Virus record (IMG/VR): IMGVR_UViG_2744054854_000009
Length of the DNA: 30,480 nucleotides
Origin: a virus
Lineage: Duplodnaviria > Heunggongvirae > Uroviricota > Caudoviricetes
Strand: one strand, 5' to 3'
Shown: piece by piece, positions 3,269 to 10,091 of the stretch
How positions within the stretch are numbered: position 1 is the stretch's first letter
How the letters are laid out: each line of letters starts with the position of its first letter
The notes under the pieces: model-generated
What the model saw: only the letters and a program-made list of their open reading frames with translations
Database searches by the model: none
Told to the model about the DNA's origin: nothing
Translations under genes and position numbers: made by a program

Positions 3269-3784
3269 ATGGCTATTCCTAAGAAACTCCGCCTGTTCAC
3301 GATGTTTGTCGATGGCGACAACTACATCGGGAAAATACCCAGCGTCACGCTCCCGAAAATCACCCGTAAAACGGAAGATTACCAGGGTGGCGGTATGCTT
3401 GGCTCTGCTGCTGTTGATCTCGGCCTTGATTCAGGTGCACTGGATGCATCAATGATTGTTGGTGGCATGGTCGAGGAGCTGATCCTGAAATGGGGTGGGG
3501 ATATTGACGAACTACGCACGCGCTTTGTCGGTGAGATCTACAGCGGCGGTACAAGCTCCCTGCTTGAGGTCGAGATGCGCGGACGTATTACCGAAGTCGA
3601 CCAGGGCGAAGCCAAGCAAGGTGATGACACCAATCATACTTATGCGCTCAAAAATACGTATTACAAGCTGTCCGTGGATGACAAACCTCTGCTGGAAATC
3701 GACCTGCTGAACTTCATCTACAAGCGCAACGGTAAGAGCCTCTACCCGGATCGCATTGCGTCCGCTCTGGGCCTCGGCCAGTAA
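3269..3784 (+). CDS. FII: tail tube protein
   Basis: 171 aa; MAIPKKLRLFTMFVDG... resembles P2 gpFII; GGGAGG SD; start abuts FI stop. Confidence 0.95.
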   Translation: MAIPKKLRLFTMFVDGDNYIGKIPSVTLPKITRKTEDYQGGGMLGSAAVDLGLDSGALDASMIVGGMVEELILKWGGDIDELRTRFVGEIYSGGTSSLLEVEMRGRITEVDQGEAKQGDDTNHTYALKNTYYKLSVDDKPLLEIDLLNFIYKRNGKSLYPDRIASALGLGQ

Positions 3785-3805
3785 CCTTTTTTAACCACTA
3801 CAAAT

Positions 3806-3824
3806 GGCGGCCAGTCTGGCCGCC
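3806..3824 (+). other. perfect stem-loop between FII and E (possible attenuator or RNA processing element)
   Basis: GGCGGCCA-gtc-TGGCCGCC, 8-bp stem and 3-nt loop, no trailing U-run. Confidence 0.3.
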
Positions 3825-3837
3825 CGGAGAAAGAATA

Positions 3838-4137
3838 ATGTCAGTAACTCTCAGCCAACCCATTAAACGCGGCGATCAGGAAATCAAATCCGTCTCAATC
3901 ACCGACACAATCAAGCAGGCTGGCTCACTGCGCGGGCTGCGTCTGGTTGATGTTCTCAACTTCGATTATGACGCGGTATCAACTCTGCTGACTCGCGTAA
4001 CCACGCCCCAGCTGACAACTGCCGATATTTCCTCAATGGCGACCGGCGACTTTACGGCCCTGTGCGAAGAAATCACGCCTTTTTTGACGAAAGCGGCGCC
4101 GTCCGCACCGAGCGAGGCGGCAACGGCGAGCAAGTAA
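3838..4137 (+). CDS. E: tail assembly chaperone E
   Basis: 99 aa ORF directly after tail tube, GGAGAAAG SD; position and size as P2 gpE; contains slippery TTTTTTG near its 3' end. Confidence 0.85.
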   Translation: MSVTLSQPIKRGDQEIKSVSITDTIKQAGSLRGLRLVDVLNFDYDAVSTLLTRVTTPQLTTADISSMATGDFTALCEEITPFLTKAAPSAPSEAATASK

Positions 4138-4310
4138 GAGAGGCAGTATTCAGCGATGTCGACGATCTGATCGCCGATATCGCTGTGATATTTCACTGGC
4201 CGCCCTCCGAAATGCACAGCATGGAGTTGCGCGAGCTGATGGCCTGGCGCGAACGGGCGGCCATCAGAAGCGGCAACCATGATAAGGAGGATGACGACGA
4301 TGGATCTTAG
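3838..4310 (+). CDS. E': tail assembly chaperone E+E' made by programmed -1 ribosomal frameshift
   Basis: Slippery heptamer T-TTT-TTG at 4080-4086 in E frame; the -1 frame is open from there to TAG at 4308-4310 (track ORF 4062..4310), overlapping the T start; mirrors the P2 E/E' (lambda G/GT-like) arrangement. Confidence 0.75.
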
Positions 4311-7239
4311 TATTCGCGTTGCGTTCAGTGCAATTGACAAGCTCACCCGCCCGGTCAGCGCCGCCAGTAAAGCTATTGGCGGCCTTTCCGACTCCCTCAA
4401 AAAAACTCAGTCCTCCATCAAAGACCTGGAAAAAAGCGCAACATCATTTGATAAGTTACGCTCGCAAGCCAATGACACTGCGCAGAAGCTGAAAAGCACC
4501 CAGCGGGCATTTAACGGTCTAAACCAGAAGCAACGTGAAGGCGGCCAGCTTACTGAAGCCCAGACGGCACGGCTTGAGTCACTTCGCACCAGGCTTTCCC
4601 GGCTGACGGAAACCTACGGCAGGCAAACGACGCAGCTGCGCACAGCAGCGCAGGCTGTGCGCCAGCATGGCGTTAATCTCACCACCGGTAGCGGCGCCAT
4701 CCAGAGTGCCATCAGGCGTACGGAACAATACAACCAGGCACTTGAGCGCGAACGTCGTCAGCTGGCTGCTACCCAGAAAGCCCAGGCCAGATACGAACAG
4801 GCAAAAGAGACTGCGGGTAAACTTCGCGGTGCAGGCATGGGGATGATGCTTGGCACTGCTGCTGCGGGCTACGCTGGCGGATCATTCCTTGCGCCTGCGA
4901 TTGGTTTCGACGAGGAAATGTCACGCGTCCAGGCCTTAACCCGCCTTAATAAAGACTCTTCCCAGATGGGAGATCTGCGCGCGCAGGCTAAAAAACTCGG
5001 TGCAGAAACTGCATTCACCTCTCGCGATGCAGCCAGCGGGCAGGCGTTTCTTGCAATGGCTGGCTTTACTCCAGAGGCCATTCAGGCGGCATTGCCCGGC
5101 GTTCTGAATATGGCGCTGGCCGGTGGCATGGATCTTGGTGAAAGTGCCGATATCAGCTCCAACATTCTTTCGCAGTTCCGCCTTGATCCAAAGGAAATGG
5201 ATCGGGTCAGTGATGTTTTGACCGCAGCATTTACCCGTACTAACACCGATTTAATGAACATCGGTGAGGCGATGAAGTATGCAGGAACCGGGATGGCTGG
5301 TCTTGGCGTTGATGTTGAGCGCACAACCGCCATGATCGGTGTAATGGCCAACGTTGGCCTGCGGGGTAGTATTGCAGGTACTGGCCTACAAACCACCTTT
5401 TCACGTCTGGCCGCACCAACAGGCAAGGCTCAGGCAGCCCTGAAAGAATTGGGCGTTTCTGTTGCTGATGCCACCGGAAAAATGCGACCGGCCGAAGTGG
5501 TCTTGTCTGATATTTATAAATCTATCAAAAAGTACGGCGATACAGACCAGCTTTCATTCTTCAAAGATATCGCTGGCGAGGAGGCAGCAAAGTCATTTCA
5601 GGCGCTGGTTAGATCGGCTGGTAGCGGTGAGCTGCAAAAACTCCTTGCCGATTTGCGCGGCTCTCATGGTGAAGCGCAGAAGGCAGCGAAGGTCATGGCT
5701 GACAACCTCAGCGGTGATCTGAAAAACCTGGACAGCGCATGGGAGGGTTTCCGCATTCAGATTGAGGAGACTGCCGACGGCCCTCTGCGCTCTCTCACTC
5801 AGGGGCTTAGCGATATGATCACCGCCGCCAGTACCTGGGTAAAAGAAAACCCCCGACTGACACAAACAATCATTCTGGTTGTCGGTGGGACACTTGCACT
5901 GGTGGCGGCAATTGGCGCTGCATCACTGGCGATGGGTATTCTTATTGGCCCCCTCGCCAAACTTCAGCTCGGCTTTTCACTGCTGACCGGTGGTCGCGGG
6001 CTACTCGGCACCATTGCAGCTTTTCGCACTCTCGGCACTGTCGCGGGCCCGGCCATGGCAAGTGTCAGAGGATGGTCCGTCGTACTGTCAGGAATCGCCC
6101 CTAACCTGGGAAGAATTTCAGCTATTCTCCCTGCGGTTCGCTCTGGTCTGCTTACTGCATTCCTGTCTCCTGGCGCACTTGTGGGATCGCTGACTAAAAA
6201 CATTGGCATGCTGCTGCTTCGCCTCACTGGCTTACCAGCAATCTGGGGCATGATCACCGGTGCGATATCTGTTCTTGGTGGGGCTTTATCTTTTTTACTC
6301 AGTCCAATAGGCCTGATTGGTGCCGCGTTTGTATCTGCGGGATTGCTAATCTGGCGATACTGGGAACCCATTAAGACATTTTTCCTCGGTATGTTTACCG
6401 GAGTTATGCAGGCGATCTCCCCTCTCAGGGATGCCTTTGCCACCTTTTTCCCCATCTTTGACATGATCAGCAATGGGGTGAAATCCGTCTGGCAGTGGTT
6501 TACAAACCTTTTGTCGCCAATGCAGACCAGCAAAGAGACGCTTGATAAATGCGCGAGCGCTGGCGTGATCTTCGGTAACGTGCTCGGCGGTGCGATTAAT
6601 CTCGTCCTGACCCCAGCCAGGATGCTACTTGATACTCTGGGCTGGATACTTGAAAAACTTGGTGTACTACCTGATGAAGCAGAGAGGGCGCGCAAGAAAA
6701 TTGAGGATGCGCAACGCTCTGCCCTCCTTCAGGATAAGGTGGCTTTCCTTGCCGGTGATATGGCTAAAGTCGCCCCCAAAAAAGCAGAGTCGCCAGTTAC
6801 TACTGCTGCACCCGCTGCGGCCTCGCCGCTATCAGGAAATACCGGTACGCAACGACGCCTGCAAAGCATCGCAGACAATACAAAAGCAACCGCTGACAAC
6901 ACCAAGAAAGTCGGGCCGGGTGACATTATTTTCAAAAACCTGCCGCGCGCTCTGGCTTTACGTGGCGCATACCAGGAAGCGCGTGTTACACCGCAGTCAG
7001 TGCCGCGAGTGGCAACGCCCGCCGCTGGCGGCATTATTTCCGCGACAGCAGCCACTCAGGCACCGGTATCGGCCCCCGTTACCGCGCCCACCGGCAATGC
7101 TCCAGTGTTTAACATTACCTTTAACGATGTTGGTAAGCGCACGGATCAGGAGCTGGAAAGAATGGTACGCAATGTTGTGCGTGATGCGATGGCCAGTACC
7201 AACAGAAATAACCGTGGTTCTTTCCGCGACAGAGATTAG
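4300..7239 (+). CDS. T: tail tape measure protein
   Basis: About 979 aa with coiled-coil-like N-terminal part, hydrophobic/Gly-rich central segments and low-complexity C-terminus; follows E/E'. Start chosen at ATG 4300 (AAGGAGG SD 9 nt upstream); track start 4279. Confidence 0.9.
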   Translation: MDLSIRVAFSAIDKLTRPVSAASKAIGGLSDSLKKTQSSIKDLEKSATSFDKLRSQANDTAQKLKSTQRAFNGLNQKQREGGQLTEAQTARLESLRTRLSRLTETYGRQTTQLRTAAQAVRQHGVNLTTGSGAIQSAIRRTEQYNQALERERRQLAATQKAQARYEQAKETAGKLRGAGMGMMLGTAAAGYAGGSFLAPAIGFDEEMSRVQALTRLNKDSSQMGDLRAQAKKLGAETAFTSRDAASGQAFLAMAGFTPEAIQAALPGVLNMALAGGMDLGESADISSNILSQFRLDPKEMDRVSDVLTAAFTRTNTDLMNIGEAMKYAGTGMAGLGVDVERTTAMIGVMANVGLRGSIAGTGLQTTFSRLAAPTGKAQAALKELGVSVADATGKMRPAEVVLSDIYKSIKKYGDTDQLSFFKDIAGEEAAKSFQALVRSAGSGELQKLLADLRGSHGEAQKAAKVMADNLSGDLKNLDSAWEGFRIQIEETADGPLRSLTQGLSDMITAASTWVKENPRLTQTIILVVGGTLALVAAIGAASLAMGILIGPLAKLQLGFSLLTGGRGLLGTIAAFRTLGTVAGPAMASVRGWSVVLSGIAPNLGRISAILPAVRSGLLTAFLSPGALVGSLTKNIGMLLLRLTGLPAIWGMITGAISVLGGALSFLLSPIGLIGAAFVSAGLLIWRYWEPIKTFFLGMFTGVMQAISPLRDAFATFFPIFDMISNGVKSVWQWFTNLLSPMQTSKETLDKCASAGVIFGNVLGGAINLVLTPARMLLDTLGWILEKLGVLPDEAERARKKIEDAQRSALLQDKVAFLAGDMAKVAPKKAESPVTTAAPAAASPLSGNTGTQRRLQSIADNTKATADNTKKVGPGDIIFKNLPRALALRGAYQEARVTPQSVPRVATPAAGGIISATAATQAPVSAPVTAPTGNAPVFNITFNDVGKRTDQELERMVRNVVRDAMASTNRNNRGSFRDRD

Positions 7240-7744: not shown

Positions 7745-8313
7745 TTAAACCCCTTCATGTTCCCTTCTTCTTGAAGGGAACTTCTTGTAAAGCGTCGATA
7801 TTCCGACATCAAAAATAATAGCCACCTGCTGCCGTTTTTCCCCTGCGGCGATCAGCCTTCCCGCCTGTTCCCATTGCTGCTTTGTCAGTTTTGGCCGCCT
7901 CCCGCCTATTCTTCCTTCTGCGCGGGCAGCCGCCAAACCGGCGCGGGTACGCTCAACGATCAATTCTCTCTCCATTTCTGCCAGCGCCCCCATGACGTGA
8001 AAGAAAAAGCGCCCATGGGTGTTGAGGTATCAATGCTGTCTGTCAGGCTGCGGAAGTTAACACCGCGATTGCGTAGCTCTTCGATCATTGTCACCAGGTG
8101 GCGCATGCTCCGCCCAAGACGATCAAGCTTCCAGACAACCAGCGTATCACCCTCCGATAAGGTCCGTAATAAACGCTTAAGCCCCGGCCTTTCCGCTTTA
8201 GTGCCGCTTATTTTGTCTTCAAATATTTGTTCACATCCTGCGCTTACCAGCGCATTTCTTTGCAGCGCAGTGTTCTGGTCATTTGTTGACACCCTTACAT
8301 AGCCGATCAGCAT
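7745..8313 (-). pseudogene. Hin/Gin/Cin-family serine DNA invertase, reading frame broken by a 1-nt loss in a homopolymer
   Basis: N-terminal ORF (7960..8313) has the catalytic serine motif GYVRVSTNDQ; C-terminal ORF (7745..7993) has the HTH part MGALAEMERELIVERT...GRRPKLT. Frames meet at an A5 tract (8004-8008, T5 on coding strand); one more T would restore the conserved ...GAFFFHVMGALAEMEREL... read-through. Confidence 0.8.
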
Positions 8314-8351: not shown

Positions 8352-8624
8352 TTGTATCGAGCATCGTCATTTCTGGCTGTACTGCAGGTCTGGTACCGCA
8401 CCGTCAGAAGTAACCATGTCTTCCGGAAAACGTTGGTTTCAGAAGTCAATACCTACATCAATACCCATCAGTGGCCTGGCAAAGCTGCTATTGGTCGTCT
8501 GAAAGGCGAGGAACTGGCGCAATATAATTCGTGGCTGGATTATCTGGACGCACTGGAACTGGTCGATACTTCCTGTGCGCCAGATATTGAATGGCCTACG
8601 CCTCCGGCAGTTCAGGCCAGCTAA
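8352..8624 (+). pseudogene. 5'-truncated remnant of an alternative tail fibre assembly gene (tfa', convergent with G)
   Basis: No ATG in the ORF (track start is TTG); C-terminal half ...YNSWLDYLDALELVDTSCAPDIEWPTPP matches the conserved Tfa C-terminal motif (W..Y...VDTS.APDIEWP) also seen at the end of G; no alternative tail-fibre C-terminus lies between it and the invertase. Confidence 0.6.
8421..8446. other. candidate degenerate invertase crossover site (hix/gix-like)
   Basis: ttccggAAAACG-TT-GGTTTCagaagt: quasi-palindrome around a central TT, opposite orientation to the site at 9471-9496. Confidence 0.3.
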
Positions 8625-9021
8625 CATGGTTGGGGTCGGTTTTCACATCAACCAATTTCACAGTGTTCTTATATGTCAGCCACGCCGACAGATTTGTCCT
8701 GTTGGTGTCACTGATTTCTCCCAGCATTAATTCTGTACGCCAGTCGAGCATCATCGCATCAGCATGAGCCAACAGCCGCTGACGTTCATTCTCAGCAGTC
8801 GCAATCAACTCTTCCTTGGTCGGAGGTGGAATATCAACCCAACCAGGCATCCCATTCACTGACCCCAGCTTTTTACCGGAGGGAGCTGCACCACAAAATT
8901 GGAGGTGAAGCACATGGGTAATTTCAATCAAATCATCAGGCCAGTTTCCCGCACGCTCGTAGGCTTCTTTGCGGTCGTCATCATAGAAACCAACAGTTGA
9001 CGCACTAAATAAAATTTTCAT
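8596..9021 (-). CDS. G: tail fibre assembly protein
   Basis: ATG at 9021 (MKILFSASTVGFYDDD...) 2 nt after the H-frame stop; C-terminus ...VDVKTDPNHVSWPELPEA has the Tfa-type motif; track ORF extends to 9096. Confidence 0.85.
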   Translation of the reverse strand: MKILFSASTVGFYDDDRKEAYERAGNWPDDLIEITHVLHLQFCGAAPSGKKLGSVNGMPGWVDIPPPTKEELIATAENERQRLLAHADAMMLDWRTELMLGEISDTNRTNLSAWLTYKNTVKLVDVKTDPNHVSWPELPEA

Positions 9022-9022
9022 A

Positions 9023-9346
9023 TCAATACCCCAGTGCGAACCAGAATCCGCCACTATTTGAGTTAAAATCAGAATCTTGCGCGACATGAAAACCAAATCC
9101 AGTTCTTACCACTCCGATAGCTGAACAACCAAACCCCTTTGTTGGCCGTGCCGTAGCGTCCAGTGTACACATCACGGCAACAGTAGCTGTCGGGTGAGTT
9201 ATAGTAAATGTGACGTTTGTAGTTTGCCCTGCGTTGGTTGGGCCAACTTTACCCCACTGCAAAATCAGTCCACCTGGTAGATACTGATATCCGATCGCGT
9301 TTTTCAATATAGACGTTTGTAGTTTGCCCTGCGTTGGTTGGGCCAA
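9023..9346 (-). pseudogene. H: out-of-frame C-terminal portion of tail fibre gene H, separated from the main ORF by a 100-bp duplication
   Basis: ORF repeats ...LKNAIGYQYLPGGLILQWGKVGPTNAGQTTNV (encoded by the repeat) then continues TFTITHPTATVAV...GGFWFALGY to a stop abutting G; has no independent start signal. Confidence 0.6.
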
Positions 9347-9409
9347 CTTTACCCCACTGCAAAATCAGTCCACCTGGTAGATACTGATATCCGATCGCGT
9401 TTTTCAATA
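9212..9409. repeat. perfect tandem direct repeat, 2 x 98 bp with period 100 bp, inside tail fibre gene H
   Basis: 9212-9309 is identical to 9312-9409 (read directly); period is not a multiple of 3, so the H frame shifts and stops at 9249-9251. Confidence 0.9.
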
Positions 9410-10091
9410 CTCCAAACGAACCCATGTCGGGGATTTGGTTTGTACCCGCACCCACATCACACAGTGCTGCCGATTTAATTCCAAGGTTTTGGAGAACCTG
9501 ATTTACCAGCCCAGCATCAACCATTTCTTTTAATGCATTAGCTATCAGTGGGTATTGCTTGTGCGGATTTGCAGCAGCTACGTGCTTTTTCATCACATCA
9601 TCGGCGTATGCCTTAACTTCAATAACGGCATCATCAACATATTTACGGGTTGCCAGCACCACTGACGGATCGATTTTCAGCGTCACAGCCTCGGTGCTGC
9701 TGACGATCAGGATCACGCGAATAACCTGCACGCGCCCGCTACCTTCCTGCAACTGCGGTTTATAAGTCTCTGCACAGTTGGCAACCGCAATCATATCGCC
9801 GTCTTTATCAAACAGGCCAATCTCACGGATCCACCATCCGCCCGCGTCTTCCGGTATAACCTGTTCCGCAATGATCTGATTGGTGTTTACCGGGTCAACA
9901 GTCAGCATGTTCAGCTGCGCGCGGCGCAGCTCATGCACGAGGGCGGTTTGGGCCGGATTGGGTGTCGGCAGCGCGCCGTTACCATCACCGACGGCCATTT
10001 GGGTGATCTCAACCTGCGCACCCAATGCCGTGGCGTTTGCCAGTTTTGCCGCCCCGATATTGGTTAACAGGGCAAAATATTTAGTCGCCAC
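9249..10091 (-). CDS. H: tail fibre protein H, truncated form (280 aa) ending inside the duplicated segment
   Basis: N-terminal region ATKYFALLTNIGAAKLANATALG...MAVGDGNGALP...YKPQLQEGSGR resembles P2 gpH N-terminus; GTG start at 10091 with GGAGA SD (track start is TTG at 10112); premature stop caused by the 100-bp duplication. Confidence 0.8.
   Translation of the reverse strand: MATKYFALLTNIGAAKLANATALGAQVEITQMAVGDGNGALPTPNPAQTALVHELRRAQLNMLTVDPVNTNQIIAEQVIPEDAGGWWIREIGLFDKDGDMIAVANCAETYKPQLQEGSGRVQVIRVILIVSSTEAVTLKIDPSVVLATRKYVDDAVIEVKAYADDVMKKHVAAANPHKQYPLIANALKEMVDAGLVNQVLQNLGIKSAALCDVGAGTNQIPDMGSFGVLKNAIGYQYLPGGLILQWGKVGPTNAGQTTNVYIEKRDRISVSTRWTDFAVG
9471..9496. other. candidate invertase crossover site (gix/hix-like) inside H
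   Basis: Coding-strand sequence TTCTCCAAAACC-TT-GGAATTAAATCG; left half matches the recalled conserved Hin/Gin half-site TTATCCAAAACC at 11 of 12 positions; encodes H residues VLQNLGIK just upstream of the C-terminal region. Confidence 0.4.

Follow-up and report, generated by a model that had tools for sequence, protein, structure and literature searches.

The window analysed here, a 30,480-nucleotide stretch of DNA in the caudoviricete IMG/VR record IMGVR_UViG_2744054854_000009, carries the tail-fibre gene H of a P2-like prophage of Escherichia coli. The region between positions 8421 and 9496, which covers the 3' part of H and the genes below it, is very probably a locked allele of a Gin/Hin-type invertible tail-fibre segment. 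In the working form of such systems, a serine invertase together with host Fis and an enhancer cuts the central dinucleotides of two inverted 26-bp sites. At this locus, one site would be placed inside H and the other just upstream of the invertase gene, and the 1.8-1.9 kb between them would flip, fusing the constant N-terminal part of H alternately to one or the other of two receptor-binding tips, each paired with a chaperone gene of its own. In the window, only the outer half-sites and the cores are left, with one foreign cassette between them that consists of the variable region of H (Hv), the chaperone gene tfa and a remnant of a second chaperone gene, tfa', which is reduced to its last 63 codons. 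A first-pass annotation made from the letters of the window had described a host-range switch that has lost one of its two states, and a direct comparison with sister prophages supports this description.

The sister loci (L038-L047, n = 10), which were retrieved by an exact look-up of the frameshifted invertase fragment, also belong to E. coli and are near clonal in their backbone, with 0-7 differences in about 6.5 kb. By region, the counts are 0-1 for the invertase side (688 bp), 0-7 for gpU and the tape measure gene (4285 bp), and 0-1 for gpI and the constant part of H (1500 bp). In eight of the ten loci, the segment measures 1.8-1.9 kb and is bounded by complete 26-bp sites, with two Hv-tfa modules in mirror arrangement between them. 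The complete near sites read TTCTCCAAAACC TT GGTTT(G/A)GGAGAA (on the coding strand, TTCTCCAAAACC TT GGTTTGGGAGAA), and the complete far sites read TTC(T/C)CC(C/T)AAACC AA CGTTTTCCGGAA. L041 and L042 share one segment at 98.6% identity, which is inverted in one locus relative to the other. The complete sites and the two orientations in the sisters imply that the positions flagged in the window are real crossover sites of a real inversion system. All ten loci are identical through the outer halves and the cores, and the divergence sets in immediately inside. The allele of the window itself is found in a single orientation and with the same junctions in three independent assemblies, represented by the window with its twin L046, by L010 and by L011.

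The DNA between the cores is different in each locus: there are eight distinct two-module segments, of which roughly 46-66% can be aligned pairwise at 81-90% identity, and two locked alleles. The second of these, in L040 (ENA ERZ28587215 scaffold_44, positions 3650-4393), is independent of the allele in the window, resides on the same backbone and has 716 bp between the cores, with a different Hv and a short open reading frame (ORF) of 60-70 amino acids (aa) in its interior. Its far site reads ATCCGGAATAGG AA CGTTTTCCGGAA, in which the inner half is an inverted copy of the outer half at 9 of 12 positions. The foreign cassette of L040 begins at both cores, which is where the homology to the E. 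coli flanks ends, and searches of complete E. coli genomes and of IMG/VR gave no donor for it.

The near site marks the boundary between the constant part of H, which runs up to it, and the variable gp53-like tip below it. The reverse complement of its right half, TTCTCCAAAACC, matches the gix half TTATCCAAAACC, as taken from the Mu sequence record, at 11 of 12 positions. This confirms, at the exact coordinates 9471-9496, the earlier claim of a Hin/Gin-like half-site inside H, and since the site does align with a characterised gix site the claim is not refuted on that count. It is the sole match with at most one mismatch in the 30-kb window, where 0.10 are expected by chance. The minus strand of the site encodes VLQNLGIKS within H, in agreement with the peptide VLQNLGIK given previously. 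The inner half, CGATTTAATTCC, is degenerate, and the outer half and the core are followed by GGAATTAAATCG (G-I-K-S) instead of GGTTTGGGAGAA (G-L-G-E). The homology to other H genes stops at positions 9481-9489. The homology to L002 ends at 9481, and the homologies to L054 and L006 begin at 9489 and 9496, respectively.

The far site had been proposed as a weaker site at 8421-8446 with its core in the opposite orientation. This is borne out by the sisters, which hold complete sites at this position, and by the core dinucleotides, which read TT at 8433-8434 and AA at 9483-9484 on the plus strand and are in inverted orientation. The site is identical to those of the sister prophages through position 8439 (TTCCGGAAAACG TT GGTTT) and diverges thereafter. 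The sisters have GGTTTGGGAGAA or a similar sequence at the inner position, followed by an in-frame Hv', and in the window this position is now occupied by the tfa' sequence GGTTTCAGAAGT. The tfa' remnant is 99% identical to codons 85-147 of tfa' in E. coli UTI89, with a match that starts at 8433, the first base of the core; at the nucleotide level, positions 8433-8627 are 99% identical to the last 195 bp of the full-length gene, which lies in a UTI89 prophage of the Mu-like type and encodes 147 aa. The window has lost the Hv' tip together with codons 1-84 of tfa'. A three-way alignment of L001, the window and UTI89 reveals that the intact far site and the internal tfa' sequence of UTI89, AAAAAAATATCT TT GGTTTCAGAAGT, have only TTGGTTT in common. 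This motif consists of the core and the five most conserved bases of the half-site, and the endpoint of the truncation falls within these 7 bp. The remnant has no ATG, encodes the conserved C-terminal domain of the tail-fibre assembly protein, and is convergent with tfa, which it overlaps by 29 bp. We also note an ORF of 90 codons with a TTG start (8352-8624, plus strand) that runs in frame from the region upstream of the invertase gene through the far site into the tfa' remnant; no gene is called at this position in L010.

The two remnants differ in how clearly they stand out from the rest of the window. The far site differs from the Mu half-site at three positions, a level of match that is reached 38 times in the window, so that it is not distinguishable from chance by its sequence alone. 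A scan of the window for the full palindromic hix/gix consensus gave nothing within three mismatches, and the core motif AAACCNNGGTTT was not enriched in the window, and consequently the far site cannot be established without the relatives. With a half-site matrix built from these relatives, the near and far sites outscore all other 26-mers of the window, at 18.0 and 14.3 bits, scores that were reached by 2 and 7 of 100 shuffles, in a test that is partly circular as the relatives share the outer halves. The outer halves score 17.2 and 11.7 bits and the inner halves 0.8 and 2.6 bits; what is found in the window is outer halves only, and not two complete 26-bp sites with paired inverted halves of 12 bp.

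A tblastn search with the Hv, Hv', tfa and tfa' proteins of four relatives and of Mu identified no second Hv in the window. The total between the sites is one Hv, one full tfa and the 63-codon remnant of tfa', which is one module short of an invertible segment. The contents of the segment (the C-terminal region of H, tfa and a convergent tfa' without ATG) and the lack of an alternative C-terminus for H had been described correctly, and no intact pair of tfa' and Hv' that would have contradicted this was found by tblastn. When the segment was inverted in silico between the cores, H was fused through its constant part to the remnant out of frame, as had been predicted, and the product was 233 aa long with a 31-aa junk tail, so any residual inversion would destroy H. 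The comparison also revealed three features beyond the first-pass annotation, namely that both inner half-sites are gone, that the adjoining invertase gene is frameshifted and that H contains a tandem duplication.

The duplication shifts the frame of H as assembled and truncates the product to 280 aa, and removal of 100 bp yields an H of 322 aa that is identical to the product in L010. It is absent from L010 and L011, which are otherwise identical, and present in L046 (GCA_001640145.1), and it may be either a real mutation or an assembly artefact. In the closest relative among complete genomes, E. coli PCP06171 (L001, 8782-8960), H is likewise annotated as broken, being partial or frameshifted, and this may be due to indel errors of the assembly.

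The Gin homologue is located 107 bp from the far site. A tblastn search with Mu Gin against the window gave 76-77% identity, split over two frames, and the alignment to the intact homologue in L003 showed that one base is missing. This is the sole lesion in the invertase gene. Addition of one C restores a protein of 189 aa with 78% identity to Mu Gin and 97% identity to L003, and the coding sequence is conserved with Gin. A programmed ribosomal frameshift was considered and rejected, as no canonical slippery heptamer was seen on inspection. The frameshifted product of 117 aa is on record in 356 blocks of a public assembly collection, which indicates that the pseudogene allele is widespread. 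In other genomes, the invertases of UTI89 (L004) and PCP06171 (L001) are truncated or frameshifted, and L002 (E. coli CFSAN051542, NZ_CP020835.1, 4193-4413) has both complete sites and two modules with no invertase gene between gpU and the segment. Decay of the enzyme with survival of the sites appears to be common.

Taken together, the loss of the half-sites, the single cassette, the dead invertase and the destruction of H upon inversion suggest that the locus would express one fixed fibre tip, which in this genome is additionally broken by the 100-bp duplication. The prophage is therefore predicted to make at most one fibre type. Judged from the sequence, the allele should not be counted as a working member of the family but as a remnant, since its sites are incomplete, it has one module instead of two, and it does not give an in-frame product in each orientation. 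For the annotation, this means that the 5'-truncated tfa' and the split ORFs of the invertase and H are to be treated as remnants and not as genes.

The cassette between the cores has relatives on other phage backbones. A cassette in Pam3/E217-like myovirus prophages (L006, L048 and L054) matches the interior, from 8433 to about 9489, at 98-99% identity. In these prophages, the same Hv is fused to two unrelated constant regions of H at ...ACC TT GG..., with the outer halves TTACCACAAACC and TTCTCACATACC, so that with the window counted, three different constant regions join Hv at one point. L054 (NCBI GCA_903980485.1, 6001-7855) contains the same cassette of Hv, tfa and truncated tfa', and there the same AA dinucleotide again forms the join of the tfa' remnant, with a different outer half, CCTTTCAAATAT, on its other side. 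This half precedes the invertase of L054, which is intact, with 187 aa and only 56% identity to that of the window. Since the same truncated cassette is found beside an intact invertase, the truncation need not have arisen in the prophage studied here. Every homology breakpoint falls on the cores, and joins at the same dinucleotide were seen in four contexts on the far, or tfa', side and in three contexts on the near side. Further searches gave no relative of the Hv tip in a protein-pattern scan of the GTDB representative genomes, no exact match to the far junction in the same genomes, and no close match to the interior Hv-tfa DNA in complete E. coli genomes or among phages and plasmids. A scan of metagenomes with a 19-mer from the near junction returned only chance matches in unrelated genes that encode GIKSAA.

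We consider it reasonably probable that the junctions were made by a serine invertase acting at quasi-sites, through deletion, cassette exchange or both. On this account, the far site would have recombined at its core with a quasi-site inside tfa' that has one good half, which removed the alternative module, and the cassette would also have moved from phage to phage through joins at the two cores. A serine invertase, acting in cis or in trans, is the most likely catalyst of the two events. Invertase chemistry is favoured by the repeated use of the exact cleavage position, including on the far side, where no protein constraint applies. Several points weigh against this account. Every junction holds an identity of 7 bp (TTGGTTT or ACCTTGG) in the conserved part of the site, and short-homology illegitimate recombination therefore predicts the same products. 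Wild-type Hin and Gin have a strong bias towards inversion in cis, at the expense of deletion and intermolecular exchange. The frameshift is present in all ten sister loci, which suggests that the resident enzyme was probably dead before the alleles diverged, so that a trans-acting enzyme must be assumed. The sharp edges of heterology at the cores could be old and kept by homologous recombination in the identical flanks. Furthermore, the donor of the full two-module version of the cassette was not found. A trans-acting enzyme is plausible because the Phi4 segment of EC958 inverts in trans with its own invertase truncated (PMC4134206). The topology of the invertasome has been described (PMC3798978), and a passage in PMC3945230 that cites Sandmeier 1994 attributes the exchange of fibre genes among unrelated phages to site-specific recombination by invertases.

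Some of these points also speak for an alternative in which the locus is equally a locked remnant and its junctions were formed by ordinary short-homology recombination (illegitimate or by slippage) at TTGGTTT and ACCTTGG, without an invertase. It accommodates the 7-bp identity at the far and near junctions, the frameshift in every sister locus and the reluctance of invertases to delete, and yet we regard it as unlikely. The reconstructed ancestor contains 120 pairs of direct 7-mer repeats that are 200-1800 bp apart, nine of which would remove Hv' and the 5' part of tfa', and only one of the nine (TTGGTTT) is placed on the core. Moreover, the dinucleotide used in the four far and three near contexts was used again in L040, and the far junction is under no functional selection. 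Another explanation is that the switch still works and is flipped in trans by the invertase of another prophage, with a full H in the on state and a truncated H in the off state. The inverted TT and AA cores with one good half per site are compatible with this, as is the inversion in trans that has been reported for EC958, where the resident invertase is truncated (PMC4134206). It is nevertheless very improbable, given inner halves of 0.8 and 2.6 bits as compared to 11.7-17.2 for real halves, the single orientation in three assemblies, and an inverted state that yields only the truncated H of 233 aa. Finally, the resemblance to hix and gix could be due to chance in a locus that was never invertible, in line with a far site that is not significant by itself and with the absence from the window of any match within three mismatches to the palindromic consensus. 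This idea has a negligible probability, being refuted by the comparison with sisters that have complete sites at the same positions on an identical backbone and segments in both orientations, and it leaves the nearby Gin homologue and the presence of a tfa' remnant unexplained.

Returning to the invertase-mediated origin of the junctions, a broader and more tentative proposal is that Gin-type cores may serve as docking points at which whole fibre-tip cassettes are exchanged between unrelated phages by invertases acting in trans, and that locked alleles may be by-products of recombination at quasi-sites; from the sequences compared here, we regard this as possible, at somewhat less than even chances. 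If true, the cassette has moved between P2-like and Pam3/E217-like prophages, even in a lineage with a dead invertase of its own, and the ten near-clonal sisters record a rapid, site-specific turnover of cassettes rather than an old polymorphism.

The coordinates of the features are listed in Table 1. On the minus strand of the window, the baseplate genes V, W, J and I are followed by H, tfa and the Gin-like invertase gene. The P2 set of tail and baseplate genes is present (V, W, J, I, H, G, FI, FII, E, T, U and D, together with ogr), as judged from Pfam hits on the identical products of L010 and from the annotation of the E. coli sister loci. From the opposite side, the tail genes FI to U read towards the invertase gene. 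A rearrangement was considered for the convergent order of FI-U and V-H and was rejected, as this is the normal order in the sister prophages. The twin of the window, L046 (NCBI GCA_001640145.1), is 99.989% identical to it over 9.35 kb, and an ORF of 107 aa in L046 carries the name E. coli gp53-like protein.

Table 1. Features of the tail-fibre locus, in window coordinates. Pfam names are precomputed hits on the identical products of L010.
Feature	Position	Strand	Details
Gin/Hin-family serine invertase pseudogene	7745-8313	-	ORFs 7960-8313 and 7745-7993; Pfam Resolvase, HTH_7; from tblastn, alignment and repair
Invertase frameshift site	8012-8014	-	plus-strand CCC run; CCCC in intact homologues
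Far (invertase-proximal) crossover-site remnant	8421-8446	+	outer half TTCCGGAAAACG 8421-8432, core TT 8433-8434, then GGTTTCAGAAGT 8435-8446
Junction overlap TTGGTTT	8433-8439	+	common to the intact far site and the internal sequence of full-length tfa'
tfa' 3' remnant	8433-8624	+	last 63 codons and stop, no start codon; from UTI89 tfa' match and tblastn
tfa (P2 gene G analogue), chaperone	8596-9021	-	intact ORF, 141 aa; Pfam Caudo_TAP
Tail-fibre gene H	9023-10091	-	GTG start at 10091; Pfam Phage_tail_fib, Gp53-like_C
Perfect tandem duplication	9212-9409	.	two 98-bp copies, period 100, 2-bp TA filler, within the variable region of H
Near crossover-site remnant	9471-9496	+	inner half CGATTTAATTCC 9471-9482, core AA 9483-9484, outer half GGTTTTGGAGAA 9485-9496

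The window itself represents the ordinary decay of a classic phage host-range switch, and the most interesting part of the results is located outside of it. Junctions that are exact to the base pair at the central dinucleotides recur over several phage backbones, and a hypervariable cassette is found in an otherwise clonal prophage. The recurrent core junctions and the hypervariable cassette provide natural support for the proposal from the 1990s that invertase sites mediate the horizontal exchange of receptor-binding modules, which is relevant for predicting and engineering the host range of phages and tailocins. This P2 hotspot has been described as a place where fibre genes and chaperone genes are swapped and where an invertase is often present (bioRxiv 10.1101/2024.10.15.618418).

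The working form of the system belongs to the family of the Mu G, P1 C and e14 P segments and their relatives in P2-like prophages, and the locus is a known kind of system in a decayed state. It resembles the Mu G segment (Gin, gix; S/U and S'/U') in that the repaired invertase is 78% identical to Gin and the near outer half matches gix at 11 of 12 positions. As in Mu, one site is placed at the constant/variable junction of the fibre gene and the other just upstream of an invertase gene that reads away from the segment, and the chaperone genes are convergent. However, Mu has two complete sites in 34-bp inverted repeats and two full modules, whereas the window has only the outer halves and cores, one module with a tfa' remnant of 192 bp, and a frameshifted invertase gene, all on a P2-like backbone.

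The locus also resembles the invertible segments of E. coli P2-like prophages (for instance EC958 Phi2, EPEC E2348/69 and L038-L047), which share the backbone and the position. The sisters have 26-bp sites of the kind published for EC958, and sites of this kind have been tabulated together with the Sandmeier consensus (PMC4134206). The window differs from these segments by the loss of the second module and of both inner halves, and by a cassette that is otherwise found in Pam3/E217-like myovirus prophages.

The far junction is similar to the P1 quasi-site cixQ, used by Cin, in that it combines a true site with a sequence that has one good half and an identical central dinucleotide. The P1 quasi-sites studied by Iida and Hiestand-Nauer in 1986 and 1987 were reportedly characterised in experiments and gave mostly inversions. 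In contrast, the event in the window is deduced from a natural junction, and its product would be a deletion or a cassette exchange. In its present state, the window is probably functionally equivalent to the fixed H-G pair of phage P2, with one H, one tfa and no switching, and P2-type records also contain a partial second tfa beside G. Unlike P2, the window keeps an invertase pseudogene and recognisable half-sites, and it is hence visibly derived from an invertible ancestor.

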